Shown here: positions 1-37,639 of the stretch, in pieces
Layout of the letters: each line of letters opens with the position of its first letter
How positions within the stretch are numbered: the stretch's first letter is position 1
Origin: Escherichia phage REP5
Length of the DNA stretch: 64,000 bases
Sequence record: OQ174504.1
Reading direction: 5' to 3' (one strand)
Notes under the pieces: generated by a model
The model's database searches: none
The model's input: the letters and a program-made list of their open reading frames with translations, nothing else
Told to the model about the DNA's origin: nothing
Program-made: the position numbers and the translations under genes

Positions 1-6
1 ATGTCT

Positions 7-81
7 GGTACAGGTGGAGGGAATTGAACCCATCGTCTTACTGATTAAGAGTCAGCCGCATAACCATTTTGCTACACCTGC
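7..81 (-). tRNA. tRNA, anticodon CUU by hand fold (Lys?)
   Basis: Reverse complement folds as cloverleaf: acceptor GCAGGTG/CACCTGT, T-arm GGTTCAATTCC, anticodon loop CUCUUAA, CCA encoded. Confidence 0.55.
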
Positions 82-88
82 ATTAATT

Positions 89-166
89 TGGTAGGAGACA
101 AGGGATTCGAACCCTCAAACATCTCGTTCTAAGCGAGATAGGTTTACCAATTACCGTCAATCTCCC
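89..166 (-). tRNA. tRNA, isotype unresolved (anticodon loop CUUAGAA, UAG?)
   Basis: Acceptor GGGAGAT/GTCTCCT, T-arm GAGGGTTCGAATCCCTT, CCA encoded; D-arm poorly paired by eye. Confidence 0.5.
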
Positions 167-421
167 ATTAAGTCTTTTTAGAGAACTTCTAAGAACCTAA
201 GCAACAAGGTTCCACAACAAGCTGTAATAACCTTAGAAGCCCTCTAAAAAGACCTAAAAAGGTCTTTGCATAGTCTTGTTTAATCCGGTGACTAGAACCT
301 TTGGAGAGCTTGATATTATCTCTTCTCCGTGACACCTACTAGGTGTTTTATCAATGTGTACAACAATACACGCGGTATACCAAAGCAACATCCGAATGAA
401 GCTTGGCTTTAAATCTTATTA

Positions 422-508
422 GGCGGTAAGTAAAGGAGTCGAACCCTCACCGTATCTCTACAGTGGCAACTGTTTTCAAGACAGTTTGGCTACCATTAGC
501 CGCTACCT
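422..508 (-). tRNA. tRNA with long variable arm, anticodon UGA (Ser?)
   Basis: Anticodon arm ACTGT-CUUGAAA-ACAGT resembles tRNA-Ser; T-loop TTCGACT; acceptor pairing imperfect. Confidence 0.5.
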
Positions 509-524
509 ACCCCTAATAAGACTT

Positions 525-607
525 TGGCATGGGACGGAGGAGTTGAACCCCTTTGAAACGGTGTTGGAAGCCGTTGCTCATGCCTTAGAGTCTTAACATC
601 GTCCCAT
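525..607 (-). tRNA. tRNA-like element, atypical anticodon arm (9-nt loop), isotype unresolved
   Basis: Acceptor ATGGGAC/GTCCCAT plus CCA, T-arm GGGGTTCAACTCC; stem AACGG/CCGTT encloses a 9-nt loop. Confidence 0.4.
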
Positions 608-749
608 ACTATAATTCGAAGCTTACCGTATTATCTCAACACTGTAAAGCCCCTTCTCAGATTATTTACATGTTCTGGAAAACATGAGATACAGACCACC
701 TCCCTACAGGAAGACCCGCTTAGGTCGTCTAAGTAATCTGCTAACTATT

Positions 750-826
750 TGGCACACCCTACAGGATTCGAACCTGTAACTCAATGATTAGAAGTCATTT
801 GCTCTGTCCAGTTGAACTAAGGGTGC
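750..826 (-). tRNA. tRNA-Arg (anticodon UCU)
   Basis: Acceptor GCACCCT/AGGGTGT, anticodon arm AATGA-CUUCUAA-TCATT, T-arm ACAGGTTCGAATCCTGT, CCA encoded. Confidence 0.6.
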
Positions 827-1073
827 ATTAATCTTTAAAGACTCTCTTAGAAAGCCCTTAAAGATGCCCACCTTATTAATCATACCGTGGGCTAGTACGC
901 CAAATTCTTTGATGAGGGATTGGAAGACCTCACTGGTGTTTAGCCTATCAAGCTACTGCCAGAAAAACATTGTCGTTTGCATTTATTTTAAATTTGCAAA
1001 ATAGACGCTACGCAACGAAAACTAAGGTTACTATAAAGTGGTCACATCTCAGTGTCAACAACTTTATTGAAAT

Positions 1074-1149
1074 TGGTACTGTGAGAAGGATTCGAACCTT
1101 CTGCCTTTCGGTTATCAGCCGAATGCACATCCATATGTGCTTTCACAGC
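1074..1149 (-). tRNA. tRNA-Ile (anticodon GAU)
   Basis: Acceptor GCTGTGA/TCACAGT, D-stem GCAC/GTGC, anticodon arm TTCGG-CUGAUAA-CCGAA, T-arm GAAGGTTCGAATCCTTC. Confidence 0.6.
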
Positions 1150-1151
1150 TT

Positions 1152-1229
1152 TGGAGGTTCAGATGGGAATCGAACCCACATTCATAGGGCTTATGAGACC
1201 CTTGCATTACCTTATCTGCGACTGAACCA
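1152..1229 (-). tRNA. tRNA with CAU anticodon (Met or Ile2)
   Basis: Acceptor GGTTCAG/CTGAACC, anticodon arm AGGGT-CUCAUAA-GCCCT with three G-C pairs, T-arm GTGGGTTCGATTCCCAT. Confidence 0.55.
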
Positions 1230-1232
1230 TTT

Positions 1233-1308
1233 TGGTAGAAGTGGAGGGATTCGAACCCATCGCCTGTCAGATTAAAAGTCTGCCGCATCACCATTCTGCT
1301 ACACTTCC
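1233..1308 (-). tRNA. tRNA-Lys (anticodon UUU)
   Basis: Acceptor GGAAGTG/CACTTCT, anticodon loop CUUUUAA, T-arm GGGTTCGAATCCC, CCA encoded. Confidence 0.55.
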
Positions 1309-1312
1309 ATTA

Positions 1313-1456
1313 AATTATCTTTGTAGATAAGCTACCCAGACTTGCTTAAGGTCTGTAGCGATGTGCCTTGTTGGGTTTAAATCTAGAATTTACCCTTTCA
1401 CCCTTTGTGGTCGCATACTCACAGGTAAGCTTAATAACTTATCTACAAAGATAATT
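1313..1456 (-). ncRNA. Candidate structured small RNA or processing element (19-bp inverted repeat enclosing 106 nt)
   Basis: aattatctttgtagataag at 1313-1331 is the exact reverse complement of 1438-1456; lies between tRNA genes. Confidence 0.3.
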
Positions 1457-1739
1457 ACCAGACCGTTGTTTATCATCTTAAGTGCTACCATTACACCAAC
1501 TCGACATCTGCCGAGTGAAGGAATCGAACCTTCACCTTTTCTTTACCGGAGAAATAGATTGTTTAAGTTTTGCTGTAAACGGTCTTCTGTAAATTTGTTG
1601 AGCCAGACCAAGTTTTAAATTTTTCAAAATTAAATTGGCTTGAAATTTTCATACGTTCTTGCTGTATTTGGTCTTCTGCTCCTTTAAAGAATACTCGTAA
1701 GAACTCTTTAAGGGAGGGGCTAAATAGCCCTCTCAAAAT

Positions 1740-1825
1740 TGGCGGCTACGATGAGACTTGAACTCACATCATCTCCCAATATCCTTTTACGTGGGAGTAT
1801 TTTAACCAAATTAAACTACATAACC
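1740..1825 (-). tRNA. tRNA-like element, 86 nt, anticodon arm unresolved
   Basis: Acceptor GGTTATG/CGTAGCC with G-U pairs, T-arm GTGAGTTCAAGTCTCAT, CCA encoded; central stem CTCCCA/TGGGAG encloses 11-nt loop. Confidence 0.4.
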
Positions 1826-1830
1826 TTTAT

Positions 1831-1918
1831 TGGTGTGCCGTGTAGGAGTCGAACCTACCGAGTCTCAATGACAAGGGATTTACAGTCCCCACCGCTACCA
1901 TCTACGGGATAACGACAC
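1831..1918 (-). tRNA. tRNA-Tyr (anticodon GUA), long variable arm
   Basis: Acceptor GTGTCGT/ACGGCAC, anticodon arm GGGGA-CUGUAAA-TCCCT, variable arm, T-arm TAGGTTCGACTCCTA, CCA encoded. Confidence 0.6.
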
Positions 1919-1929
1919 ATTTAAATTTG

Positions 1930-2003
1930 CGGTTAGTCAGGGATTCGAACCCTGTGCCATTCGCTTAACAGGCGACCGCACATACCTTATGTGCTTCCTA
2001 ACC
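1930..2003 (-). tRNA. tRNA-Asn (anticodon GUU)
   Basis: Acceptor GGTTAG/CTAACC, D-stem GCAC/GTGC, anticodon loop CUGUUAA, T-arm CAGGGTTCGAATCCCTG; CCA not encoded. Confidence 0.55.
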
Positions 2004-2087
2004 ATATTTAGTATTACCAGACCGTATCTTTCAATTTTTTCCGCTAAAAATTTGATAAGTGTTGCTGTAAACGGTCTTCTGTAAAAT

Positions 2088-2163
2088 TGGAGGCGGGTGC
2101 AGGAGTCGAACCTGCCGATACCATGCTAATGAGACATGTGAGACGCCCTTTCTCTATACCCGC
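2088..2163 (-). tRNA. tRNA with CAU anticodon (Met/fMet or Ile2), 1:72 mismatch
   Basis: Anticodon arm CATGT-CUCAUUA-GCATG, T-arm GCAGGTTCGACTCCTGC, acceptor GCGGGT/ACCCGC with unpaired first position. Confidence 0.5.
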
Positions 2164-2255
2164 AATTCTTAATGACCAGACCAAATCTCTTCTTTGTCCG
2201 ATTTACCTTCAGATGAATAAGATTAAGTTTGCTGTAATTGGTCTTCTGTCAAAAC

Positions 2256-2333
2256 TGGCGTTCCAGAAGGGATTTGAACCCTCAGATATCCACTTTGAAA
2301 GAGTGGTGACTATACCATTTTGTCTACTGGAAC
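2256..2333 (-). tRNA. tRNA-Glu (anticodon UUC)
   Basis: Acceptor GTTCCAG/CTGGAAC, anticodon arm CCACT-CUUUCAA-AGTGG, T-arm GAGGGTTCAAATCCCTT, CCA encoded. Confidence 0.6.
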
Positions 2334-2340
2334 ATTAATT

Positions 2341-2420
2341 TGGTCTCCGTTGAAGGATTTGAACCCTCGACCCCTTGCTCCCAAAGCAAGTGCTGCTAAA
2401 CCAAACTGAGCTAAACGGAG
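2341..2420 (-). tRNA. tRNA-Pro (anticodon UGG)
   Basis: Anticodon arm CTTGC-UUUGGGA-GCAAG, T-arm GAGGGTTCAAATCCTTC, acceptor CTCCGTT/AACGGAG, CCA encoded. Confidence 0.6.
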
Positions 2421-7651: not shown

Positions 7652-8039
7652 TAGCAGTCATATCCACGTTAAAGTTGATGTCAGTCGTTACAGTGAAAAT
7701 GAAGAATTAGACCTGCAAGATGCTCTTCTCTTTGAGAAGAATGGCAATCTGCATTTGCATTTTGAAGGTACAAACACATATCTCCACAGATGCCGAGATG
7801 ATGCCGATGGTTGTCCTGTTTTTGCTTGGTACAATTTAGAGTTTCCTCTTTATGCAATCCATTATCCAGATGGTGGAGAAGACTGGACAACTCAATCAAT
7901 CTTTGATGAGCTTAATGGTGTTCCAGTTGAGCAAGAAGAGCGAGAGCCTGTTGAACTTACCTTCACCTTTATCAAAGAAGAGAAAGTAGGTGACTTGTCA
8001 GTAACTGAAGCAATTCAAGTCTCACAGGTGATTCGTTAA
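7644..8039 (+). CDS. Hypothetical protein
   Basis: 131 aa ORF overlapping upstream stop. Confidence 0.6.
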   Translation: MNNSSHIHVKVDVSRYSENEELDLQDALLFEKNGNLHLHFEGTNTYLHRCRDDADGCPVFAWYNLEFPLYAIHYPDGGEDWTTQSIFDELNGVPVEQEEREPVELTFTFIKEEKVGDLSVTEAIQVSQVIR

Positions 8040-10128: not shown

Positions 10129-10353
10129 ATGATTAAGACACCTGTACCAATTTTTGGATTTCCTTCTATAGAAGAGTTTAAAGTTTATCTTGACAAAAAC
10201 TTCTACAATGAGCAGCCTGTTACTCTGCTGAAGAGTGACTTATCAGAGCTTCTTGATATGGTTATCAAGGCAACTCCTGAGAAGGAGCCTGAACAGAAAG
10301 CTGAGAAGAAGACCAGTAAGAAATCTGATAAGAAGACTGAAAAGTCTGAGTAA
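10129..10353 (+). CDS. Hypothetical protein, lysine-rich C-terminus
   Basis: 74 aa ORF. Confidence 0.5.
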   Translation: MIKTPVPIFGFPSIEEFKVYLDKNFYNEQPVTLLKSDLSELLDMVIKATPEKEPEQKAEKKTSKKSDKKTEKSE

Positions 10354-10406
10354 GAACTTGAGGGGTTACTTGATAGCCCCTTTGTAGAAACTTAGAAGGT
10401 AGCGAA

Positions 10407-10835
10407 ATGAAAGAGCATGTAGGTAAAGAGCTTGACATTGTAGATGCAAAGACACAGAGATATATAACTACTGTTAAGTTTCTTGGAATTAGTGATATGA
10501 GTGATTTTTATCCTCTCCACTGCATAGTGCTAGACAAATTTGAGGTTTGTGGTATTAATTTTAATGAGGATAACTTTATAAGCTTTGATAAGGACGGTTT
10601 CTGGCGTGGTAAGAACCACCCTCAAGCAAATGATTTTGATATGCGTCTAGTGATACCACAAAAAGGTAACCAACAAAACGTAAAAGATATCCTTGTAGAA
10701 GCCTATGCAGAAGGTATAATAGATGTTGTGAATGATGTTGAAAAAGCTTTAAAACTCATCATGCCACATTTAGAATCTGGAAAGCTGACTTTAGAGATGC
10801 TTAATAGGGTTATTCGGAGAGCTTATGAAAATTAA
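10407..10835 (+). CDS. Hypothetical protein
   Basis: 142 aa ORF. Confidence 0.6.
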   Translation: MKEHVGKELDIVDAKTQRYITTVKFLGISDMSDFYPLHCIVLDKFEVCGINFNEDNFISFDKDGFWRGKNHPQANDFDMRLVIPQKGNQQNVKDILVEAYAEGIIDVVNDVEKALKLIMPHLESGKLTLEMLNRVIRRAYEN

Positions 10836-11364
10836 AGAAGTTGAAGGTAACTATCTAGTCCTTGATTGGAGTGATGTTCAAGAAGCACTCTCCAAAGAGA
10901 GTCTTAGCATACTAGAGCAACTTATCTTCTCAGTACGGCATATCAGAGAAGTTAAAAATGGTAAAGAGCCACTTGAAGGAATCTTTGTAGAGAAGTCTTA
11001 TCCGTTCTATGAAGACACCTTGCAGAAAGTTAAAATGTACTTTAAACAGAAGAACCGTAAAGTGGTCACTATGGTATCTCTTGGTGGACAGAGTATGTCT
11101 GTGATGGAAGATATCAACCCTAAGAGACCGAGTAAAGGCGTTTGTATAAAAATCACAGGACATGAAGAGTATATCTCAGTGGATGACTTTAGTGCATTCT
11201 GTAATGGGTCTTGTGTCTTTAATGGTTTTCACTATGATATCCGAGTATACCCAATCAAGGGAGATGATATCATGATGCAGGTATTCGATAACAACAATGG
11301 ATTCACTCATTTTTATCAGACAACCAAGTCATCACTGAAGACAGTTCTGGAAACACTGATTTAA
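10825..11364 (+). CDS. Hypothetical protein
   Basis: 179 aa ORF, last gene of plus block. Confidence 0.6.
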   Translation: MKIKEVEGNYLVLDWSDVQEALSKESLSILEQLIFSVRHIREVKNGKEPLEGIFVEKSYPFYEDTLQKVKMYFKQKNRKVVTMVSLGGQSMSVMEDINPKRPSKGVCIKITGHEEYISVDDFSAFCNGSCVFNGFHYDIRVYPIKGDDIMMQVFDNNNGFTHFYQTTKSSLKTVLETLI

Positions 11365-11459: not shown

Positions 11460-12640
11460 TGGGTCACCATCATATGTGAATAAAAATATCTATCCTTCTT
11501 AACAACCTTCTTAATCTTACTCTCTATATATAGTTATATAGTACTATATAGTATCTTAGTATCTATCTAGTGGTCTTAATAGCCCTCTGTATAAGCCTTC
11601 TAACAAGCCCTCTAACAATCCTTCTAAACACTCTTCTAACAAGCCTTCTTAACAACCTATACAATCACCTTAACCATCTCTCTATACCCTCTTAGAAGCT
11701 CCTATACACCTCTTAATCTCTAGGTTACCTGTGTTACTTAACAGTAACCCATTATGTCAGCTATGTTACCCTCTATAGGTGTTCACTAGGTATTACTAAG
11801 CCTCTATATAGACTGTTTTAACAAACTTAACAGGAATATCTTTACAGACCTTATCTCACAAGGTCTAACACGGTACTAACAAGGTATCTTATAAGCCTGT
11901 TTATGCCTGTATTTTTAAAAGACTGTCTAGGTAATTATTCAGAATTTTAAAATTTTTATAAAATAGGACTATCAAGTCATTTTTTAGGGTCTTTGAAGGA
12001 ACTCAAAAATATCTGTAGAAGATGTATATCTGCTTGGTAGCCCTTAACAGCTCCCTTACAAGTACTTTGCAAAATTTTAAAATATCCTTAACAATCTCTT
12101 AACAACTCTCTCAAGCTTTTAACATCTCTTTAGAGGTCTTAACAGATTCTTAACAGAACTAACAAGGCTGTAACAAGTTCTTAACAGTCAATACATGGTC
12201 TTTACAGAGTCTTAACAGATGACTAACAAGAGCTAACAAGTTAATTTTTAAGAGTTATTTTGTTAAGATAATTAACAAGTTCCTAACAAGTGTTTAATCT
12301 TTTTAACAAGCTATTAACATGGTCACTATCTCTGGTCTTATCGTTCCCTTTCTTTCTTAGTGATTCTCTAAACATACCTCTTAAAAGCCCTCTATAGCTC
12401 TTTGTAAGCTCTTTTAAGCCTCTTCCTAGTAATTACACCCCAACTATACAGACACCTATTTATAAGGCTTTACAGGAGCTTTAAAGGCTATGTCAAAGAC
12501 TCTTACAAGGCTTTTACATGATTTTAACAGAGATTTAACAAGGGGCTAACAAGTCTCTAACAAGTGCCTTAAAAGCATAACTATGTAGGGATTGTTAAGA
12601 AATTGTTAAGAAAATGTTAAGGGGGCTAGCATTTACGTAA
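11460..12640. repeat. Non-coding array of dispersed short repeats, consensus YTAACARG (more than 25 copies)
   Basis: No ORF of 60 aa or more; cttaacag / ctaacaag recurs every 10-40 bp on the plus strand; AT-rich. Confidence 0.7.
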
Positions 12641-13020
12641 CTTTTAAGCTACTTCAAAGTAACTTTATAGCCCCTATAACATACTTTTAAGACACTATCA
12701 AGCCCTTTTTAATAGTTCACAAGATAGCTAACGAGATGATAAAGCTTACACCCTTATAAGGTTCTTTTAAGGCTCTAGAAAGCTCTATAAAGGGCTTTTT
12801 AAAGGGAGTTAATGCAATCCCTTAAGTTGGGTTGATAAGGCTGTTATAGGGCTTTATAGAGCGTTTAAATGGTTGCCCTTCCCTTTCGGGTTATGGGCTT
12901 ATATTTAAGTTGATTTGATAAAAGGCTATAGGGTAGACTATAGAGTTATTGCTTTTTAAGGTCTGATAAGATTCTGGAAAGGAAAGGGAAAGGGTTGTAT
13001 AAGGGATTTGATAAGACGTA

Positions 13021-18481: not shown

Positions 18482-18653
18482 TAAAAATTTTAAAAATATT
18501 TTTGGCAAAAATGTAATGAAACGGGCGCACGCGACTACCACAAAACAGAACTACAATCAAGAATTATTTTTCAATCCGCTACAAATTTTTATGTTGACTT
18601 TTCTTTTCAGATGTGGTAGCCTCGTGAGAAATGGCGACATCCCCACCTACACC

Positions 18654-18841
18654 CACCTACCTGCACAATTCTAAAATGATTTTTCTTGCCCGACCTGATT
18701 TTTATCTGCACGTTTTGAAAATGAAAAAGCTCTTTGGAGATTACCTGCACAGTTTGAAAATGAATTTTCTCTTTGGAGTTCAAAATTCTCTCTACAGATT
18801 TCTCTATAGAAATCTACCTGCACAATCCTGAAATGAAAAAG
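18654..18841. repeat. Four direct repeats of about 22 bp (consensus TACCTGCACARTTYTRAAAATGA), iteron-like
   Basis: Copies at about 18654, 18704, 18745 and 18815 in a non-coding interval upstream of the promoter. Confidence 0.6.
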
Positions 18842-18909
18842 CCCTCCTTACCTGAAAAATTTACCAGATAAGAAAGGCTTAACCTATTGTGAATATCCTA
18901 CAGAGTTTC

Positions 18910-19695
18910 TTAGTTATTTGCGTCTAAGAAGGTAACTTCTGGTGAAGAGAAGATTGCCCCAATATCCTCATCAGTTCTTGCATAGATGTAGGCATCTGCA
19001 TCACTGCCAAATGTTACTGCAATCCTGTGATTGCTCTTCGACAGGTGGGTAACTAGAGCGTTACTTAGAGACATCTTTTCAACCGGAGGGTTACTTTGAT
19101 GTACCTTACCTTTTCTTCGTCTGAAGAGGGTAACTGCATTATCTGAGAACACTGCTACGCCTGCAAAGTATTCTGGTTCACAGTAGTTCTTCCAACCTGA
19201 GTGTAACTCATTATACATTTTTGCTTCATAGACATACAGATAAACATCTACACTCTTCATTGCCTGATTAATGATAACTGTGACAGCTTGAGGGTCAAGT
19301 CCACCGATACCTGCGCCAATCATAGGTAACCCAACTTTCTTCAACTGATTAACTTCACAGTATCTGTTAAGTTGCTTCAAAGATGACTCTAAAGCACTGT
19401 AACGGGCATCTTTACCAGTCTTAAGCTGAGTGTAAAGATTAGCTATACGACCTTGTTTTAAACGCGCTACAGAGAAATTACCTAGTAAATTTTCACAGGG
19501 TTTGTGGCCTATACCACCTGCATACAGATAAACTTCTGTATCGGTCTCATATGCTTTTGGGTAAAGTTTAGAAATCTTAGCAGCGATACCTGCACCCATT
19601 AAGTTCATACAGTTGCAACCGTGACCAATGATATCAAACTTACCCTTATCAAATGCGGAGAAGATATCCCCATTGATGATTTTTACAATACCCAT
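18910..19695 (-). CDS. Macro-domain protein (ADP-ribose binding/processing) with C-terminal extension
   Basis: 261 aa; INGDIF..DIIGHGCNCMNLMGAGIA and GLPMIGAGIGGLDP resemble macro-domain glycine-rich motifs. Confidence 0.6.
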   Translation of the reverse strand: MGIVKIINGDIFSAFDKGKFDIIGHGCNCMNLMGAGIAAKISKLYPKAYETDTEVYLYAGGIGHKPCENLLGNFSVARLKQGRIANLYTQLKTGKDARYSALESSLKQLNRYCEVNQLKKVGLPMIGAGIGGLDPQAVTVIINQAMKSVDVYLYVYEAKMYNELHSGWKNYCEPEYFAGVAVFSDNAVTLFRRRKGKVHQSNPPVEKMSLSNALVTHLSKSNHRIAVTFGSDADAYIYARTDEDIGAIFSSPEVTFLDANN

Positions 19696-19896
19696 TTAGC
19701 ATCTCTCCCAAGATTCTTTATCTTCTGAAGGTTTTACACGTTGCCCTTCGTGGTCTACCCAGATACATCCACAACCTTCACAAATTACTGGCATTGCATA
19801 GCCAGCTTTAAAGTCATCTTCAGTGATAAGACCTTTTAAGTCACCTGTATCACGTCCGAACATTTCAATAGAACAGTCTTTGCAGAAGTCAGCCAT
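19696..19896 (-). CDS. Small Cys-rich zinc-binding protein
   Basis: 66 aa; CxxC..CEGCGC. Confidence 0.5.
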   Translation of the reverse strand: MADFCKDCSIEMFGRDTGDLKGLITEDDFKAGYAMPVICEGCGCIWVDHEGQRVKPSEDKESWERC

Positions 19897-21263: not shown

Positions 21264-22076
21264 TTATTCTTGACTGTAATAGTTGACAAGTGAAATCGCT
21301 TGATTCATCAACAACTTATCAGCCTGTGCTCCGCGACCAGCTTGTAATGCCAGTTGGTATACCTCTGTAACATATTTGTTAGACATACCTTCACAGTAGT
21401 CATTATAGTCTTCCCAAAAGGAAAATGCAGCATCACCATATAGGCGTAGTGTAATTAACATTGCTGCACGAATCCCAGAAGAATATTTCCGTTTTGCGTT
21501 TACTACACCTTTAAGCTGTACTTCAAGAGAATCAATTTGTTCCAGCTCATTTTTAAAGTCGTTAAGATATTTAACTGTTTCAGTGTTAGATACTTGTTGT
21601 ACACCGTAGTATGCAGCAACATACTTAATAGCAGTTGCCCAAGATGCTTTCATCAGTTCTGACTCTGGGTTGAAAGAAATCATCTTCATATTTCCGTAAT
21701 AAACTTCTGAAGGTTTTTCTCTTGCTAACTCAGAGTCAAAATGAGTGTACAAATCTGTGACATCCAATATGGAGTTCACATGGTATATAACTACAATCAA
21801 GTTTTCTGGTCGTGTCAGGTTACCAACTTTCCATGCCTCTCGACGTGAGTGCCCATCAATGATGAACAGTGAACTGCCGAACTTAGCCACATGGACTACT
21901 GTTTGGTCTGGTGATACGTCACCATTAAGGTGTTTACTTTTCAGACGCTTAAGTGTATTTCGTTGACGAGGGTTTTCTTTGTAACGTTTTTCATTAAGAA
22001 AATCCTCGACACTGATAATCTTAGTGTGAATTTTAACAACCTTGCCATTCAGTGCTACATTGATGCTGTTTGCCAT
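21264..22076 (-). CDS. ParB/sulfiredoxin-like domain protein
   Basis: 270 aa; IIDGHSRREAW resembles the ParB-like nuclease domain motif. Confidence 0.5.
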   Translation of the reverse strand: MANSINVALNGKVVKIHTKIISVEDFLNEKRYKENPRQRNTLKRLKSKHLNGDVSPDQTVVHVAKFGSSLFIIDGHSRREAWKVGNLTRPENLIVVIYHVNSILDVTDLYTHFDSELAREKPSEVYYGNMKMISFNPESELMKASWATAIKYVAAYYGVQQVSNTETVKYLNDFKNELEQIDSLEVQLKGVVNAKRKYSSGIRAAMLITLRLYGDAAFSFWEDYNDYCEGMSNKYVTEVYQLALQAGRGAQADKLLMNQAISLVNYYSQE

Positions 22077-22087
22077 AACTTGATACC

Positions 22088-22972
22088 TTAGTTGTGGATA
22101 ATTACTTCGTTAATATCTTTGCTTCTCTGTGCATGTATTGTGTATGAATGGCTAACCTCTGTCAAGTTAAAATTTTCAGGAATTAGTTTTGCCCATCCAT
22201 CCCACTGAGAGTTTGACATCAAAACTTTAGAGCCTAACTCCCCCCAAGAAATCATATCTTCGCATAATTTTACAGACATCTCAATGTCAAACTTTGCACC
22301 ATATTTCTGGTTGGTGTTGATATACGGGGGGTCACAGTAAATAACTGTGCCTTCTCCATGTTTTATGTCAACCCTGTCATAAGGTTCACTGCTAAGTATT
22401 ACCCTCTCATCAGTGATAAAACTGTAGAACGCGGATAGTGATTCTTTAGTTTTTGTGAAGAAAATCTCTTCTTCCAGTAAATACCCACAAGGTGTTGCAT
22501 AGTGACCTTTCATCTCTTTAGTAGTCTGCCATACACCACCAAAACTTAGTTTTTGAAGGAAAAACTGTCTGGCGTAGTACCTGTAGTCATATGCTCCCTC
22601 TTCACCAAGCAAAAGAAGTTCCTCTCTTACACTGTAATACATTTTATAGCGTAGACGGTTATGACGCTGGCCTTTCACGGCATACTCTTCCTGCATAGGT
22701 AAGGCTAAGTACCTCTTTGACAAGTACTCAAATTCTTCCATGAAGTTCTCATAGTCATCTCTGAAAGTTGTGTAAAGACCTATAATATGTTTATTTATCT
22801 CATTAATAAACACTTTTGCCTCTGGATATCTGTTATAAGCCCATATAGCTACTGAACCACCACCTGAAAACAGGTCATAGAAGTTTGTACAGTTGTCTGG
22901 AAAGACACCTAAACGCTCATACTCTTTTAATATTCTTGTTTTACCACCAAGATATTTGAACATCGGCTTCAT
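22088..22972 (-). CDS. dam: DNA adenine methyltransferase (Dam family)
   Basis: 294 aa; YLGGK N-terminus, FSGGGS SAM motif, DPPY catalytic motif. Confidence 0.8.
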   Translation of the reverse strand: MKPMFKYLGGKTRILKEYERLGVFPDNCTNFYDLFSGGGSVAIWAYNRYPEAKVFINEINKHIIGLYTTFRDDYENFMEEFEYLSKRYLALPMQEEYAVKGQRHNRLRYKMYYSVREELLLLGEEGAYDYRYYARQFFLQKLSFGGVWQTTKEMKGHYATPCGYLLEEEIFFTKTKESLSAFYSFITDERVILSSEPYDRVDIKHGEGTVIYCDPPYINTNQKYGAKFDIEMSVKLCEDMISWGELGSKVLMSNSQWDGWAKLIPENFNLTEVSHSYTIHAQRSKDINEVIIHN

Positions 22973-28950: not shown

Positions 28951-30732
28951 TTAAAGCTGCTTGTCAATATTATTTCGAATATCACCAAGAGTTGTGTAGC
29001 CGAACTGCTCAGAGTCGCTAAAGACTAGACGTAAAGCACAAGCTGGATGTTCAAGTGCATCTGCAAAGCTCTGGAACCCATAGCCATCTACAGCTTTCAG
29101 ATTTTCACCATCCCACATAGGTGCTACACCACCAAAAGCAGACTTCTTAACACCGCTATCTGTTTTAGGGTCTTTTGCAAGCATAATCTCTTTACCACCA
29201 ATGCTTGCAAGAGTTGCTTTGACAGCAAATGCAAAGGTATCACGAGTCATGTACTGGTAAGTGTAAGAACCCACACCAAACACTACGTTAGAGCTTGCAA
29301 AACCCATTTCATACAAACGCTTCAGGATTTCGTTTGCACGTTCCAACGTGATAGAGTCACCATAAATAAGGCCAATGTGTTCATCCAGTACCTTAAAACC
29401 TTTAGAGTTGATAGTCCCTCCAAAGATGTTATACAAGGTCTTAATAGCCCCATCAATCTCTGCTACAGGACGTGTTACAACGTTTGCAGAACCAACCATA
29501 TAAGCGTTTTTCAACATCACTGTATCAGCAACTTCAAAGTCTTCTCTGTCAACAACCATTTCGTAGCCTTCTGACAGTAGCCATCCAGCAATACCATAAT
29601 TGATGTTTTCAAGCTTCATGTTCAGGACGGTGCTCAGCATTGTATCACTAGCTTCCAGCTTGCTAAGATGTTCGTAATAAGCCTTTTTAGCACACTCTAA
29701 ATGGATTGCTTTGTATCCTGTGACAATATGTACAGGGTCTCCAGAGTCAGGACGAATTACCAGTTTACCATCACGTTCCATAATCTCTTTACGGAGTTCT
29801 GGTAATATAACTGATACAGTTCTCCAGAAGTTATAAGTATCTGAAACAACACTTGCAATACCAGTTGGGTAAGTTTCTGTTAAGAAACGACGGAAGGTTT
29901 GTAACTCACCTTTAAAACGTCTTTCTTCTTCAATCAACTCATTACCACCTTCCCAAGCAATGTTTGCACACATTACAGAGTGTTCAGTGGCTGGTACAGA
30001 GCTACCAATATCAGAGATTGGGTAGGACTGTCCATAGATTCGTTTAGCCGTGTATACAGCAGGGAAGCTATCAGTCCCTTTAAAGCTGGTTAAGTGACCT
30101 ACAGCATTAAATGCGTCATCAGTAAAGCCAGACATACCACGCATAGCAAAGTCATGGCACTGATAAGGCAAATGTAAGTCATTGTCACAAGTAAGGTCAG
30201 ACCACTTCTTACAAATACGTTTGTAGTGCAATGCAATAGTTGCAATGGTACAAGCCTTCCAAATCTCAGCAGAGAAAGCATCTTCCAGATAACCTGCTAC
30301 CCAATGGAAACCTGAAACAGTGTTCTGGAAGACAATCATTGGTACACGCATCGGAACAACTGTACCTTCTTCTACAGCGTATACTTCAACTGGTAGATAA
30401 CCTAAGTCGTGAAGTGCTTCCCAATGCTCTCGACCGATAGCATCTTTACCTAGAACACCATTCATGACTTCTAAGATTTCGTCAACGGCTTCTTTTTTAT
30501 CACGTTCAAAGAAAGTGGCGTTCCAGTGGTCTATCAAGTAATCTTTAACAAAACGTTGAATACCAAAAGCTACTACACCGTCAATTGCTAAAGGACTGTT
30601 AAACCATTTATCACTACGTGGTGTCAGGTTCAACATAAGATATTGCGTAGCATCTGGATACTGATATATATGTGATGCCTTGTAAGCATCTGCATTAAGA
30701 CCTGCTGGTACTGCATAAAGTGATTTAGTCAT
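28951..30732 (-). CDS. nadV: Nicotinamide phosphoribosyltransferase (NAMPT/NadV)
   Basis: 593 aa; N-terminal DAYKASHIYQYP matches the NAMPT signature. Confidence 0.85.
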   Translation of the reverse strand: MTKSLYAVPAGLNADAYKASHIYQYPDATQYLMLNLTPRSDKWFNSPLAIDGVVAFGIQRFVKDYLIDHWNATFFERDKKEAVDEILEVMNGVLGKDAIGREHWEALHDLGYLPVEVYAVEEGTVVPMRVPMIVFQNTVSGFHWVAGYLEDAFSAEIWKACTIATIALHYKRICKKWSDLTCDNDLHLPYQCHDFAMRGMSGFTDDAFNAVGHLTSFKGTDSFPAVYTAKRIYGQSYPISDIGSSVPATEHSVMCANIAWEGGNELIEEERRFKGELQTFRRFLTETYPTGIASVVSDTYNFWRTVSVILPELRKEIMERDGKLVIRPDSGDPVHIVTGYKAIHLECAKKAYYEHLSKLEASDTMLSTVLNMKLENINYGIAGWLLSEGYEMVVDREDFEVADTVMLKNAYMVGSANVVTRPVAEIDGAIKTLYNIFGGTINSKGFKVLDEHIGLIYGDSITLERANEILKRLYEMGFASSNVVFGVGSYTYQYMTRDTFAFAVKATLASIGGKEIMLAKDPKTDSGVKKSAFGGVAPMWDGENLKAVDGYGFQSFADALEHPACALRLVFSDSEQFGYTTLGDIRNNIDKQL

Positions 30733-30777: not shown

Positions 30778-31677
30778 TCAATCAAGGTTTGCTACAGTAA
30801 CTTGACTATAATGTGTTAAGCTACGGTCTTTAGCTTCTCCTAAAGAGTTTGTAGTGTAGATGTGGTCAATACCATTGTCAAGTAAGTTTTCAACACCTTT
30901 AGAGAAAATACCATGAGTTACATAGAGTTCCACACGTTTTGCACCTGCTTCACGTAGGTGTTTAGCTGCCTCTACGAAGGTTCGACCACCATCACAGATA
31001 TCATCAAGAATCATAACAGTTTTATCTGTCAAATCAACATCATCAAGGATTCGCATACCAGTAATTTCACCAGTCTTAAGGTTACGTACTTTAGACATTG
31101 TGATATATGGTTTATCCACCTCTTTAGCAGTCTCTGCAATCTTCTTAGAAGCACCTGCATCTGGGGCTACTAAGTAATCAACCAGTGGGTCATTTGCATA
31201 GTGGACTGCAATTTCCTTTTGAGAAATACTCTGGAAGCAGTTAAACAGGTTATCTGATACATAACTGTGAGGGTCAACGGCACAGACTGCATCAAAACCC
31301 ATTGCATTAACCTGTTGTGCAAACACTTTCAAAGCTGCTGCATCACCTTTAAACATGTGACGGTCATAACGTGCATTTGGCAAATAGTAAAAGATAGCAG
31401 TCTTCATAGCAAACTTATGAGGTACTAAATCATCAATTGCCTCTTTAGCAAGTGCCACAGCAAATAATGTGTCCTTGTCATAACCTTTCACAATCATAAT
31501 CACATTGTTGATAGACGATGCTGCATAAGCAGTAAAATCAACAAGCTCTTGTGAAAAATGTCCACCAATCTCACCAGAAGGGAATTGGATGATGTTAAAC
31601 TCTTCTTCATGAGTTCCTTTAGTCGGTGAATGAACTGTAACACGGATAGATGTTTTCATAGTTTCTCTCTTAGTCAA
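30778..31677 (-). CDS. prs: Ribose-phosphate pyrophosphokinase (PRPP synthetase)
   Basis: 299 aa; VMILDDICDGGRT PRPP-binding motif, FPSGEI N-terminal motif. Confidence 0.75.
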   Translation of the reverse strand: MTKRETMKTSIRVTVHSPTKGTHEEEFNIIQFPSGEIGGHFSQELVDFTAYAASSINNVIMIVKGYDKDTLFAVALAKEAIDDLVPHKFAMKTAIFYYLPNARYDRHMFKGDAAALKVFAQQVNAMGFDAVCAVDPHSYVSDNLFNCFQSISQKEIAVHYANDPLVDYLVAPDAGASKKIAETAKEVDKPYITMSKVRNLKTGEITGMRILDDVDLTDKTVMILDDICDGGRTFVEAAKHLREAGAKRVELYVTHGIFSKGVENLLDNGIDHIYTTNSLGEAKDRSLTHYSQVTVANLD

Positions 31678-35178: not shown

Positions 35179-36045
35179 TTACATAGAAACCCTATCCTTA
35201 ATTTCTGCCATCTTAGCGTCATTCATTCGAGACTGACCTTTAATTTTTGTGAATGACAAGTACCCACACACCCTGTTAATCACAGAGATATCATGTGAAT
35301 GGCAAACCTCACATTCTTCAACATCAGCCTTTGGTCTGTGACCACAATGTTCACAGATTGCTAAGTCAAAGTTAAGTCCTTGATAAAAACCTTTCAACAT
35401 CCCTCTTGTAATACAACTTTTAAGTGCTGATAAGTTTTCTGGATTAGCTACCCTTACATACTGGATTCTTCCGCCTCTACAGATATGGAAGAAGGGTTCT
35501 TCTAAGTCCTGCTTCTCAAATGGTGTAATATCTGCTGCAACATTCATATGGAAACTGTTTGTAAAGTATTCCTTATCAGAAACACCTTTGATAACACCAA
35601 ACATATCTCTGAACTGTTTTAGCTGAGTCCCACAAAGTGATTCTGCTGGAGTGCCATAGACTGCATATAAGAAACCGTCTTCATTTTTAAACTCTTCAGT
35701 TTTCATGTTGATGTATTCCAGAACATCGTATGCAAAACTACAGCTTCCAACTTCATGAAGTCGTTTACCTTCAGCAAGAACAGATAGCTCATCAAGCGCA
35801 GTAACCCCAAAAGAAGCTGTGAAGGACTTCACAATATCCCAACCAACCCTGTCAGTAGGCTTCTTAGTTCCTTTATACAGACCACCTTGTGTAAATGCAA
35901 GAGGGTTAGAACTTGCTGGCATATTAGCAATCATTTCGTAACGTTTCTTGTGGAAGTTGCGAATCATCTCTAGGTACTTATCAAGCTCTTTCCAGAAATC
36001 TAAACCATTCTCTTTAGAGTACTGGTAAATCATTGGCAAGTTCAA
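35179..36045 (-). CDS. nrdD: Anaerobic ribonucleoside-triphosphate reductase, C-terminal exon
   Basis: Zn ribbon CEHCGHRP..CEVCH and glycyl-radical motif RVCGYL; true exon start lies upstream of the first Met. Confidence 0.75.
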   Translation of the reverse strand: MNLPMIYQYSKENGLDFWKELDKYLEMIRNFHKKRYEMIANMPASSNPLAFTQGGLYKGTKKPTDRVGWDIVKSFTASFGVTALDELSVLAEGKRLHEVGSCSFAYDVLEYINMKTEEFKNEDGFLYAVYGTPAESLCGTQLKQFRDMFGVIKGVSDKEYFTNSFHMNVAADITPFEKQDLEEPFFHICRGGRIQYVRVANPENLSALKSCITRGMLKGFYQGLNFDLAICEHCGHRPKADVEECEVCHSHDISVINRVCGYLSFTKIKGQSRMNDAKMAEIKDRVSM

Positions 36046-36439
36046 AGATACAGCACCAATGTTGGCACGACCTACATAAAACTCTTCACCATATTCGTTA
36101 TGGTATGGTGATAAAAATGCTCTACACTTGTTGTTCAGGTAAGTTCGCTAAGCTTACCCCGCTTTATTCAAGCTGCTTACTGTCGCCAGTAAGTCCAGAC
36201 TATATCTTCTACTTATTTCTAAGTAGCGTACCATTTCGAGTCGCTTGACCCTACACCGCTACATTCATCACGGTTAGTCGTTCGGCATTTAGATGTATTC
36301 AAACTCATATTCGAAGTTATTTGGCATGTAAGACCCCTATGTTGTATAGTTTCTTACATCGTACATCATTTAGCACAGGATTGTCTACATCTGTAGAGTT
36401 TCCCTGTTTAGGCACGTTTTAGATGAGCTATAGAGCTTG
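36046..36439 (-). other. Putative group I intron in nrdD (boundaries approximate)
   Basis: About 394 nt between the two nrdD ORFs; on minus strand P-like CAGGGAAAC, Q-like AATCCTGTGC, R-like GAACGACTAAC and S-like GATATAGTC occur in canonical order. Confidence 0.5.
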
Positions 36440-37639
36440 TTAACCCATCGGCGAAATAACCTTGCCAGAACGCTCAAAAGCTTCTGCTACAGCACCATGA
36501 CCAGATACACTTAAGAAGTCTGGATACATTGCTTTAGAACAACACTCAATAGCTTTACTGTACAGGTGGCCTTGACAGATATTCTCATTGTGTCTCTTCT
36601 GGTCATAAATATAAACCAGTTTAGGGAATACAACAGGCTTCTTGCTCTTACCTTGTCCATTCATACGAACATCTAGGAGAGTACTTGCAATCATGTATTG
36701 CAGTCGGTTGTCTTCATTAGACATGTCTGAGTCAAGTAACCCAAATGTCAAAGTTGTGAATGCAAAATCCCCACGACTACAAGGTACAGTATTTAGTTTC
36801 ATTTCAAGTGACTGGAAACCTTGAGTTAGCTCAATCTGTAGCTGCTCCATGACATAATTGTGGTGATGTTCTTTAGGAATACCATAAGATGCTGCTTTCT
36901 CAGCATGATAGCGTAGAGACTTCTTAGCATACGGTACAAGTACCTTATCAATCTCTGCTAAAGTAAAGCCACCAAATTGCTGTGCAGTTGCTGAAAGTAC
37001 TACGTCACCAATAACCTGTAAGGCTGATAGTACAGATTTAGGTTCACAGTATTCAATGCCAGACATTTCAAAGCCACCTTTCAGTACTTTACCAATGTCA
37101 AACAGGCAACAGTTGATACCACCAAAAATTAGGTCTCTTAAATCATGGATATAGATAAACCCTTTTTCAATGGCTTCCAATTCCTCTGGTGTTAAATGGT
37201 ACTGTTTAAAGATTTCTTTAGTCAGGTAACCACGGATAATTGAACCTTTCGTAGAAATTAAACTGCTGTCAAAGTTAGCATTTTCACGGTCACCTAAGAA
37301 GAGTGTATCTTTAGTCTTCTGGTAGAGTTCATCCCAGTTTTGAGCAACCTCTTTACGGTAATTTCTATATGTTGAGTAAGACTCATAAATCTCGTGATTG
37401 ACTTCTGCCAAAGCACCCTCAACAATACTGTGAATATCATTTACTGAAACGAGTAAATTATTCTGCTTAGTAGATTTTACCAGAATCCTCATAAATGCTG
37501 ACTCAAGAGCTTGAGTAACATCTGGTGGAAGCTCTTTATAACCAACTCTGTTAGCTGACTTTGTGACTGCTGCTAAAACTTTTTTGATATCAGGTTCTTC
37601 AAGTGAGCCATTCTTTTTAATAATCTGTACTTTGTTCAT
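36440..37639 (-). CDS. nrdD: Anaerobic ribonucleoside-triphosphate reductase, N-terminal exon
   Basis: 399 aa ORF with ATP-cone-like N-terminus; continues into 35179-36045 after the intervening sequence. Confidence 0.75.
   Translation of the reverse strand: MNKVQIIKKNGSLEEPDIKKVLAAVTKSANRVGYKELPPDVTQALESAFMRILVKSTKQNNLLVSVNDIHSIVEGALAEVNHEIYESYSTYRNYRKEVAQNWDELYQKTKDTLFLGDRENANFDSSLISTKGSIIRGYLTKEIFKQYHLTPEELEAIEKGFIYIHDLRDLIFGGINCCLFDIGKVLKGGFEMSGIEYCEPKSVLSALQVIGDVVLSATAQQFGGFTLAEIDKVLVPYAKKSLRYHAEKAASYGIPKEHHHNYVMEQLQIELTQGFQSLEMKLNTVPCSRGDFAFTTLTFGLLDSDMSNEDNRLQYMIASTLLDVRMNGQGKSKKPVVFPKLVYIYDQKRHNENICQGHLYSKAIECCSKAMYPDFLSVSGHGAVAEAFERSGKVISPMG

Follow-up and report, generated by a model that had tools for sequence, protein, structure and literature searches.

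Phage macro-domain proteins that resemble yeast Poa1p were assigned two anti-defense roles in 2025-2026, namely, feeding of the NARP1 pathway against aRES, a RES-domain NAD+ phosphorylase defense, and countering of DarTG2. The first role is that of Adpp, a macro protein encoded within NARP1 operons of phages of Vibrio, Pseudomonas, and Acinetobacter (10.64898/2026.01.28.702374). The purified Adpp of Vibrio phage Gary (KNV71_gp137) converts ADP-ribose (ADPR)-1''-phosphate to ADPR in vitro, and with its H24A variant the three-gene operon no longer overrides aRES (10.64898/2026.01.28.702374). The second role is that of AdfM: transposon screening together with a clean knockout established, on genetic grounds, that the Tk.4 protein (AdfM) of phage T4 is needed on DarTG2-expressing hosts (10.1101/2025.11.20.689424), and the PhiKZ AdfM (gp104), for which an N23A mutant was also reported, is a biochemically proven DNA de-ADP-ribosylase (PMC13309987). 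The gene analyzed here is located on the minus strand at positions 18910 to 19695 of a 64,000-nucleotide stretch of DNA from Escherichia phage REP5 (record OQ174504.1; hereafter, the window) and encodes a protein, referred to below as macro+C, that by sequence sits between the Adpp and Tk.4/AdfM groups.

The macro+C protein is best read, from its sequence, as a two-domain anti-defense enzyme that has intact ADP-ribose-binding loops and no lysine of the TARG1/DarG type. Its open reading frame (ORF) starts with an ATG at position 19695 and ends with a stop codon at positions 18910 to 18912. The gene, its domains, and its principal motifs, all on the minus strand, are as follows.

18910-19695, minus strand: macro+C ORF, 261 amino acids (aa) plus stop (ORF listing; phrog_335; orthology with REP6, Bas63, and Felix O1)
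19228-19695, minus strand: macro domain, residues 1-156, of the Poa1p-like/Tk.4/Adpp type (Pfam, PADLOC DarG model, AlphaFold2 and Foldseek, homology)
19195-19227, minus strand: linker helix, residues 157-167 (DSSP on AlphaFold2 models)
18913-19194, minus strand: orphan C-terminal domain (residues 168-261), beta-rich, with six to seven strands and then a single helix
19612-19623, minus strand: H25-G-C-N28 motif (alignments A1 and A3)
19582-19599, minus strand: loop 1, the phosphate-binding glycine loop, M33-GAGIA38 (invariant in alignment A1)
19426-19440, minus strand: N86-L-Y-T-Q90 motif (invariant in A1)
19294-19320, minus strand: loop 2, the second glycine loop, I126-GAGIGGLD134 (invariant in A1)

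The phage is a Felixounavirus of the Felix O1 type. The 5 kb surrounding the gene are 99.6% identical to the DNA of Escherichia phage REP7, the REP6 protein is 100% identical to macro+C of REP5, the Bas63 (phage JohannRWettstein) protein bas63_0095 is 94.3% identical, and the Felix O1 counterpart is ORF29. The full ORF is kept in approximately 255 phage records, and the gene is present in a large, well-studied phage genus that is used for typing and therapy and includes Bas63, the source of the NARP1 discovery. PHROG family 335 (“phosphatase”) spans residues 1 to 260 (E = 8e-111), and the labels found in GenBank include “phosphatase,” “O-acetyl-ADP-ribose deacetylase,” “macro domain protein,” and “hypothetical protein.” The “phosphatase” label, already in the databases, traces to yeast Poa1p (ADP-ribose 1''-phosphate phosphatase), and the macro domain is a further member of a known, recently characterized clade. 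The fast-evolving orphan C-terminal domain, the two-domain layout, and the presence of a distal Adpp/AdfM homolog in NARP1 phages are absent from the literature that was searched: a search for Felixounavirus together with “macro domain” returned no paper, and no description of the combination of a macro domain with an orphan C-terminal domain and no report of a distal Adpp/AdfM homolog in Bas63-type NARP1 phages were found.

The macro domain and its placement

A sequence-only reading of the window had proposed a macro-domain protein whose glycine-rich motifs fit an ADP-ribose-binding fold, and both points are borne out. Residues 25 to 141 match the Pfam Macro family (PF01661) with 32.8 bits against a cutoff of 22, and the relatives P0009, P0012, P0019, and P0037 likewise exceed the gathering threshold of this family. 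With 19 family members as input, AlphaFold2 gave a model with a mean predicted local distance difference test (pLDDT) value of 84.9 and a predicted template modeling (pTM) score of 0.84. In a Foldseek search of the PDB, the top matches of this model were human TARG1 (OARD1) and two DarG macrodomains, those of Thermus aquaticus and Mycobacterium tuberculosis (E of ∼1e-8; target template modeling [TM] score, 0.75 to 0.80), followed by viral macrodomains and yeast Poa1p, with the whole set falling between E values of 1e-8 and 1e-6 and target TM scores of 0.7 and 0.8. Every PDB match is confined to the first ∼160 residues, and the comparison with DarG that had been suggested as a check shows the macro fold with a TM score of ∼0.79. 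Residues 1 to 156 can be confidently modeled as a three-layer alpha/beta/alpha macro fold with both glycine-rich ADP-ribose-binding loops.

In alignment A1, which comprises the 19 members of the macro+C family, MGAGIA (residues 33 to 38), IGAGIGGLD (residues 126 to 134), Asp10, His25, and Asn28 vary little or not at all, His25 and Asn28 being retained in 19 of 19 members. His25 occupies the position of Adpp His24, and Asn28 occupies that of PhiKZ AdfM Asn23, the residue replaced in the mutant mentioned above. Loop 1 aligns with the MGAGIA sequence of TARG1, and loop 2 aligns with the IGCGL.. and LGCANGGLD loops of TARG1 and PhiKZ AdfM. Alignment with TARG1 chains, by phmmer and by profile, puts Gln90, which is also invariant in all 19 members, on the catalytic Lys84 of TARG1 (Lys80 of DarG), and the positions neighboring Gln90 hold no conserved Lys in the 19-member alignment. 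Gly131 aligns with Asp125 of TARG1 in both sequence and profile alignments. Because the catalytic lysine of TARG1 and DarG is replaced by an invariant Gln90, a DarG-type mechanism cannot be assumed.

Profiles built for DarG nonetheless outscore the generic Macro model. The PADLOC DarG model matches with an E value of 3.5e-14, in the macro part only, and the NCBIfam DarG model gives 50.7 bits, which is below its equivalog cutoff of 250 and involves only positions 4 to 153 of the 338 in the profile, again the macro part. In pairwise comparisons with the macro domain, including the Adpp sequences from Table S1 of 10.64898/2026.01.28.702374, the highest score was that of the T-even Tk.4 (80 bits; E = 3e-23), followed by the Adpp of PaP1 (75 bits), phiAbaA1 (68 bits), PN09 (63 bits), and Gary (53 bits), and by TARG1 (44.7 bits) and PhiKZ AdfM (26.6 bits). 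The T-even Tk.4 proteins share 34 to 35% identity with macro+C over residues 3 to 160 (tblastn E of 1e-15 to 1e-18), and the NARP1-associated Adpp proteins are 27 to 35% identical to its macro domain. The motifs H-x-C-N-C, N-[LV]-Y-[TG]-Q, and IG[AC]G[IL][GA]G are common to macro+C, Adpp, and Tk.4. In a neighbor-joining tree, the macro+C family clusters with Tk.4 and macro-only relatives from metagenomes, beside the Adpp set, and PhiKZ AdfM and TARG1 fall outside this grouping. By these sequence comparisons, the macro domain belongs to the phage Poa1p-like clade; within it, sequence alone fails to tell “Adpp” from “T4-type AdfM,” both of which are without the DarG lysine. A macro-only relative from this clade, the metagenomic protein P0026 (339 aa), is fused to a “cyclic-phosphate processing receiver” domain (PF20274), which hints that some clade members may act on cyclic or 1''-phosphorylated ADP-ribose.

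The C-terminal domain and its alleles

The statement in the sequence-only reading that the C-terminal extension of ∼100 residues has no recognizable motif has withstood broader searches. The C-terminal 103 aa have no Pfam match even at an E value of ≤10. A HMMER profile of the C-terminal domain, built from 16 sequences, was compared with 1.84 billion representative proteins and retrieved its own family, the fragments P0034 and P0039, and four large repeat proteins with PQQ/BamB beta-propeller, Sortilin-Vps10, or reverse-transcriptase repeats. These four were rejected as relatives and attributed to beta-hairpin motif noise (the repeat motif SPAVxNGVVYVGSxDGNVYAL versus EPxxFDGVxVxxDxxVTL in the C-terminal domain). 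At the structural level, the domain has no fold match in the PDB, and a Foldseek comparison with viral models returned only the Suspvirus ortholog. Searches with tblastn placed the domain in 255 phage records, all from Felixounavirus, Suspvirus, or Mooglevirus and always as the tail of a macro ORF. The C-terminal domain is without a detectable relative, by sequence or by structure, outside the Ounavirinae macro proteins.

When the C-terminal domain is modeled in isolation (pLDDT, 79.7), its secondary structure is unchanged from that in the full-length model, and DSSP places the linker helix at residues 158 to 167 of the full-length model and at residues 2 to 9 of the isolated one. Judging from these models, the domain apparently has a compact, new fold, and the pTM score of the two-domain model suggests that it has a fixed interface with the macro domain. 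Among six Felixounaviruses, the ratio of nonsynonymous to synonymous substitution rates (dN/dS) is 0.10 to 0.41 for the C-terminal domain and 0.01 to 0.14 for the macro domain, so that the value for the C-terminal domain is below 1 yet 3 to 10 times that of its partner. Since purifying selection acts on both halves and the ORF is conserved, the extension is a translated functional sequence and not a product of read-through. The faster divergence is also evident over longer distances, with the C-terminal domain falling to 12 to 20% identity where the macro domain holds 40 to 47%. Within the family, the isoelectric point of the domain lies anywhere between 4.6 and 9.5; there being no conserved basic or acidic character, a conserved role in DNA binding or as a mimic of single-stranded DNA is disfavored. 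Fixed packing against the macro domain, rapid sequence change despite purifying selection, and a charge that is not conserved together suggest partner binding, and the C-terminal domain would be a lineage-specific, rapidly diverging accessory module that binds a partner protein.

A minority allele of the whole gene, of the P0009 type, has ∼41% protein identity to the majority type and was found in 13 of ∼256 Ounavirinae records, such as those of EcoM2 and FSL SP-107. One contig with this allele (L005, positions 10143 to 10934) has flanking DNA that is 92 to 95% identical to that of the window; the similarity ends ∼143 nucleotides (nt) into the gene (at about position 19553) and returns in the downstream intergenic region (at about position 18724). 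The swap of a single gene for a deeply divergent homolog in otherwise near-identical genomes is typical of loci that face variable host factors, without pointing to a particular one. Another divergent version is found in Kolesnikvirus: the ortholog from Erwinia phage vEam_S_24 (L006, positions 11998 to 12780; 260 aa, annotated as “phosphatase”) has a macro domain that is ∼41 to 43% identical to that of macro+C and a C-terminal stretch of ∼100 aa that does not match the C-terminal domain profile (-1.2 bits).

Proposed function and genomic setting

The macro+C gene lies within a long minus-strand block. Genes transcriptionally upstream of it include nrdD/nrdG, a gene for a PRPP-synthetase-like protein, a NAMPT-like gene, rIIA, rIIB, and an SLT-like gene, as well as genes for a polynucleotide kinase (PNK)-like protein, a Dam methylase, and spanins, and several small ORFs. 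Two of these genes are orthologs of Bas63 genes 79 and 80, which encode Adps and Namat and together constitute NARP1, the pathway that, as shown experimentally, makes NAD+ from ADPR and nicotinamide; Bas63 without these genes is sensitive to SIR2-HerA.

28951-30732, minus strand: Namat, the NARP1 nicotinamide ADP-ribose transferase, annotated as NAMPT (Pfam NAPRTase and NAMPT_N; 96.6% identity to Bas63 gp80)
30778-31677, minus strand: Adps, the NARP1 ADP-ribose pyrophosphokinase, annotated as ribose-phosphate pyrophosphokinase (Pfam Pribosyltran and Pribosyl_synth; 77.6% identity to Bas63 gp79)

Adps and Namat lie 9.3 to 12 kb upstream of the macro+C gene in the direction of transcription, and macro+C follows Namat on the same strand at a distance of 9.3 kb, or 15 genes. 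The sequence-only reading had placed macro+C in one early block with NAD+ salvage genes, which holds loosely, in that these genes share its strand and act in NAD+ metabolism; they are not adjacent to macro+C, and they belong to NARP1 rather than to classical salvage.

The function that we tentatively favor is that of an Adpp encoded at a distance: the enzyme would remove the 1''-phosphate from the ADPR-1''-phosphate produced by RES-type NAD+ phosphorylases and feed Adps and Namat, which would make a NARP1-AP pathway with a distal phosphatase. In such a scheme, aRES, a RES-type NAD+ phosphorylase of E. coli, Klebsiella, and Enterobacter, would destroy NAD+ and release ADPR-1''-phosphate. The macro domain would bind an ADP-ribose derivative and strip the distal ribose of the group attached at its 1'' carbon; for a phage that carries NARP1, the most likely substrate would be ADPR-1''-phosphate, the dephosphorylation of which would yield ADPR, and the phage Adps and Namat would then turn ADPR back into NAD+. 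The phosphatase of the pathway would be encoded 15 genes away from the NARP1 operon. The C-terminal domain would pack on the macro domain and most likely bind a phage NARP1 enzyme or a host defense protein, rather than take part in catalysis.

This assignment is supported by the fact that the substrate of NARP1, ADPR, is the product of the Adpp reaction and that NARP1 is present in the same genome, as well as by the occurrence of an orthologous gene, 94% identical, in Bas63, where NARP1 has been proven. The macro domain is of the Poa1p-like type expected of an Adpp, with His25 at the position of the essential His24 of the Gary protein, and aRES occurs in E. coli, Klebsiella, and Enterobacter, the hosts of such phages. 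The screen of the aRES study extended no farther than two genes from NARP1 in each direction, and neither Escherichia nor Salmonella phages are listed in its table (10.64898/2026.01.28.702374); a screen of that width would miss the macro+C gene. The gene order Adps-Namat-rIIA-rIIB-...-PNK-...-macro+C holds, all on one strand, in metagenomic relatives with as little as 33 to 42% identity in the macro protein, and it is also found in Erwinia Kolesnikviruses.

Several observations weigh against this assignment. The macro+C gene is neither inside nor beside the NARP1 operon and falls outside the definition of Adpp used by the authors of the screen (no more than two genes from Adps/Namat). The conserved order of NARP1 and macro genes reflects shared ancestry in Ounavirinae-like phages, that is, a stable co-occurrence and not an independent functional link. 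The best-scoring characterized homolog is the anti-DarTG2 protein Tk.4 of the T-even phages, whose gene, in the T4-like record examined, is not located beside NARP1 genes. The Kolesnikvirus ortholog has Gln at the position of His25 even though NARP1 is present in that phage, so this histidine is not universally kept in Ounavirinae. Finally, the role proposed for the C-terminal domain is one that we purely infer.

The ranking of Tk.4 as the closest characterized homolog raises the serious, though less likely, possibility that macro+C is an AdfM-type factor that removes from thymidine in single-stranded phage DNA the ADP-ribose placed there by DarT2, as has been demonstrated for PhiKZ gp104 and suggested for T4 Tk.4; the C-terminal domain might then play the part of the second domain of DarG, for example, by binding DarT. 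The sensitivity of T4 to DarTG2 upon the knockout of tk.4 and the original annotation of Felix O1 ORF29 by its similarity to T4 Tk.4 are in line with such a role, as are the success of the DarG profiles over the generic Macro model (E = 3.5e-14 with PADLOC; 50.7 bits with NCBIfam), the presence of DarG macrodomains among the top fold matches, and the parallel between macro+C and DarG in having a second domain after the macro domain. A deeply divergent second allele within genomes that are 92 to 95% identical likewise fits a gene engaged in an arms race. On the other hand, the catalytic lysine of DarG is missing, and the macro domain is distant from the proven PhiKZ enzyme. Since macro domains are often promiscuous, activity against DarT2 products and the Adpp role are not mutually exclusive. 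A combination of the two actions of DarG is unlikely but would have wider consequences: the C-terminal domain would be a new fold that recognizes a host defense protein and blocks, for example, an aRES-type NADase or DarT, so that enzymatic reversal would be joined by stoichiometric inhibition and the ∼250 Felix O1-like phages would run an extended NARP1. In that case, the divergent alleles, together with the Kolesnikvirus version that resists alignment, would represent different specificities.

The match of the N-terminal 60 residues to yeast Poa1p brings up the classical role of that enzyme, the metabolic clean-up of ADP-ribose phosphates that arise without any defense system; these could come from spontaneous breakdown of the NARP1 intermediate ADPR-PP to ADPR-cyclic phosphate or ADPR-1''-phosphate or from the removal of RNA 2'-phosphate during tRNA repair. 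In the NARP1 study, ADPR-cyclic phosphate was observed in Bas63-infected cells as a likely product of ADPR-PP hydrolysis, a PNK-like gene is conserved in the same block, and the fusion of the macro-only relative P0026 to a cyclic-phosphate-processing receiver domain would also fit. Nevertheless, the PHROG and Pfam scans of 20 neighboring ORFs found the PNK-like protein but no Tpt1/KptA, RNA ligase, or cyclic phosphodiesterase, and a housekeeping role would leave both the divergent alleles and the fast-evolving extra domain unexplained, which makes clean-up quite improbable. Highly improbable, too, is a role in which macro+C soaks up immune signals derived from ADP-ribose without catalysis, or degrades them, the cyclic ADPR (cADPR) isomers of Thoeris being an example. 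In its favor are the general ability of macro domains to bind ADPR derivatives and the occurrence, together with NARP1, of RyDEP, an accessory enzyme that converts cADPR signals to ADPR; however, the literature examined records no such activity for homologs from this clade, the known anti-Thoeris proteins that it names have unrelated folds, and the residues needed for catalysis by Adpp are conserved in macro+C. The earlier suggestion that the protein could remove ADP-ribosylation or process ADP-ribose-derived signals thus agrees with what is known of its homologs Adpp and Tk.4/AdfM, except that nothing points to Thoeris signals.

Should macro+C act as an Adpp in trans, the reported fraction of NARP1 phages with a phosphatase (15%, counted within two genes) would be an underestimate, and Felix O1-like phages should resist aRES. 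The existence of at least two deeply divergent alleles of the C-terminal domain within near-identical genomes offers a tractable handle on enzyme specificity. If the DarG-like dual action were true, operon-based screens would have missed an extended NARP1 in ∼250 sequenced Felix O1-like phages, Bas63 among them.

The sequences flanking the gene have several features of their own. A terminator-like hairpin, a possible end of the transcription unit, follows 30 nt past the stop codon.

18839-18880, minus strand: terminator-like hairpin (a weak candidate, given that the consensus scan found 1 site versus 0.9 expected by chance)

The gap of ∼500 nt between macro+C and the next minus-strand ORF holds four direct repeats of ∼29 to 38 nt (TACCTGCACAnTTnnGAAAATGAnnnnnCT on the plus strand; positions 18650 to 18850; spacing of 45, 39, and 73 nt), which could be repeated promoter or regulatory elements. 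On the other side, a 66-aa Cys-rich ORF with a zinc-ribbon-like CxxC...CxxC pattern (phrog_2210; positions 19696 to 19896, minus strand) ends exactly at the macro+C start. In the distant relative L003, a different 63-aa CxxC...CxxC ORF (positions 7810 to 8001) overlaps the start codon of the macro gene, and the two small proteins have no sequence similarity to each other. Farther upstream, a 270-aa protein (phrog_2615, with the motif DGHSRREAW) and a Dam methyltransferase of the D12 class make up a segment of ∼1.7 kb (positions 21264 to 22972, minus strand) that is also found in phage HMD-P8 and is absent from the otherwise collinear Bas63 and L005 contig; it looks like an accessory insertion. 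The nrdD gene for the anaerobic ribonucleotide reductase (positions 35179 to 37639, minus strand) is divided into two ORFs, an N-terminal one of 399 aa and a C-terminal one of 288 aa, that lie ∼390 nt apart. In the Bas63 record, nrdD is annotated as joined from two pieces, and the split is consistent with an intron. The window also contains 12 tRNA genes at positions 6 to 2420 (minus strand): two each for Lys and Met and one each for Leu, Ser, Arg, Ile, Tyr, Asn, Glu, and Pro.

Comparison with characterized macro proteins

Among the characterized macro proteins, TARG1 and DarG provide the best structural matches of the macro domain (TM score of ∼0.79). In DarG, too, a second domain comes after the macro domain, and TARG1 and DarG have the ADP-ribose-binding loops in common with macro+C; however, the catalytic lysine (K84 in TARG1 and K80 in DarG) corresponds to Gln90 in macro+C, and the C-terminal domain of macro+C is unrelated to that of DarG and has no fold match in the PDB. 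The PhiKZ AdfM gp104 is only 24% identical to the macro domain. With yeast Poa1p, the likeness extends to the N-terminal 60 residues, with H-x-C-N-C and glycine loop 1 among them (E of 6e-5 to 1e-4 with the family profile), and to the whole fold, which matches PDB entry 6LFQ with a TM score of 0.72; the sequence match is nevertheless partial, and Poa1p is a single-domain eukaryotic enzyme that acts in the metabolism of by-products of tRNA splicing.

The two phage groups are closer in sequence. T4 Tk.4 is the closest characterized homolog of the macro domain, with the same motifs and with Gln at the position of the DarG lysine in both proteins, but it consists of the macro domain alone (155 aa), and in the T4-like record examined, its gene lies beside vs and tk and not near NARP1 genes. 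The Adpp proteins are likewise single-domain proteins of 150 to 170 aa, whereas macro+C has an additional domain of ∼95 residues, and their genes are found within two genes of NARP1, whereas the macro+C gene follows only after 9.3 kb, or 15 genes. What macro+C shares with Adpp is the Poa1p-like macro domain, the three common motifs, the essential histidine, and residence in phages that carry both Adps and Namat.

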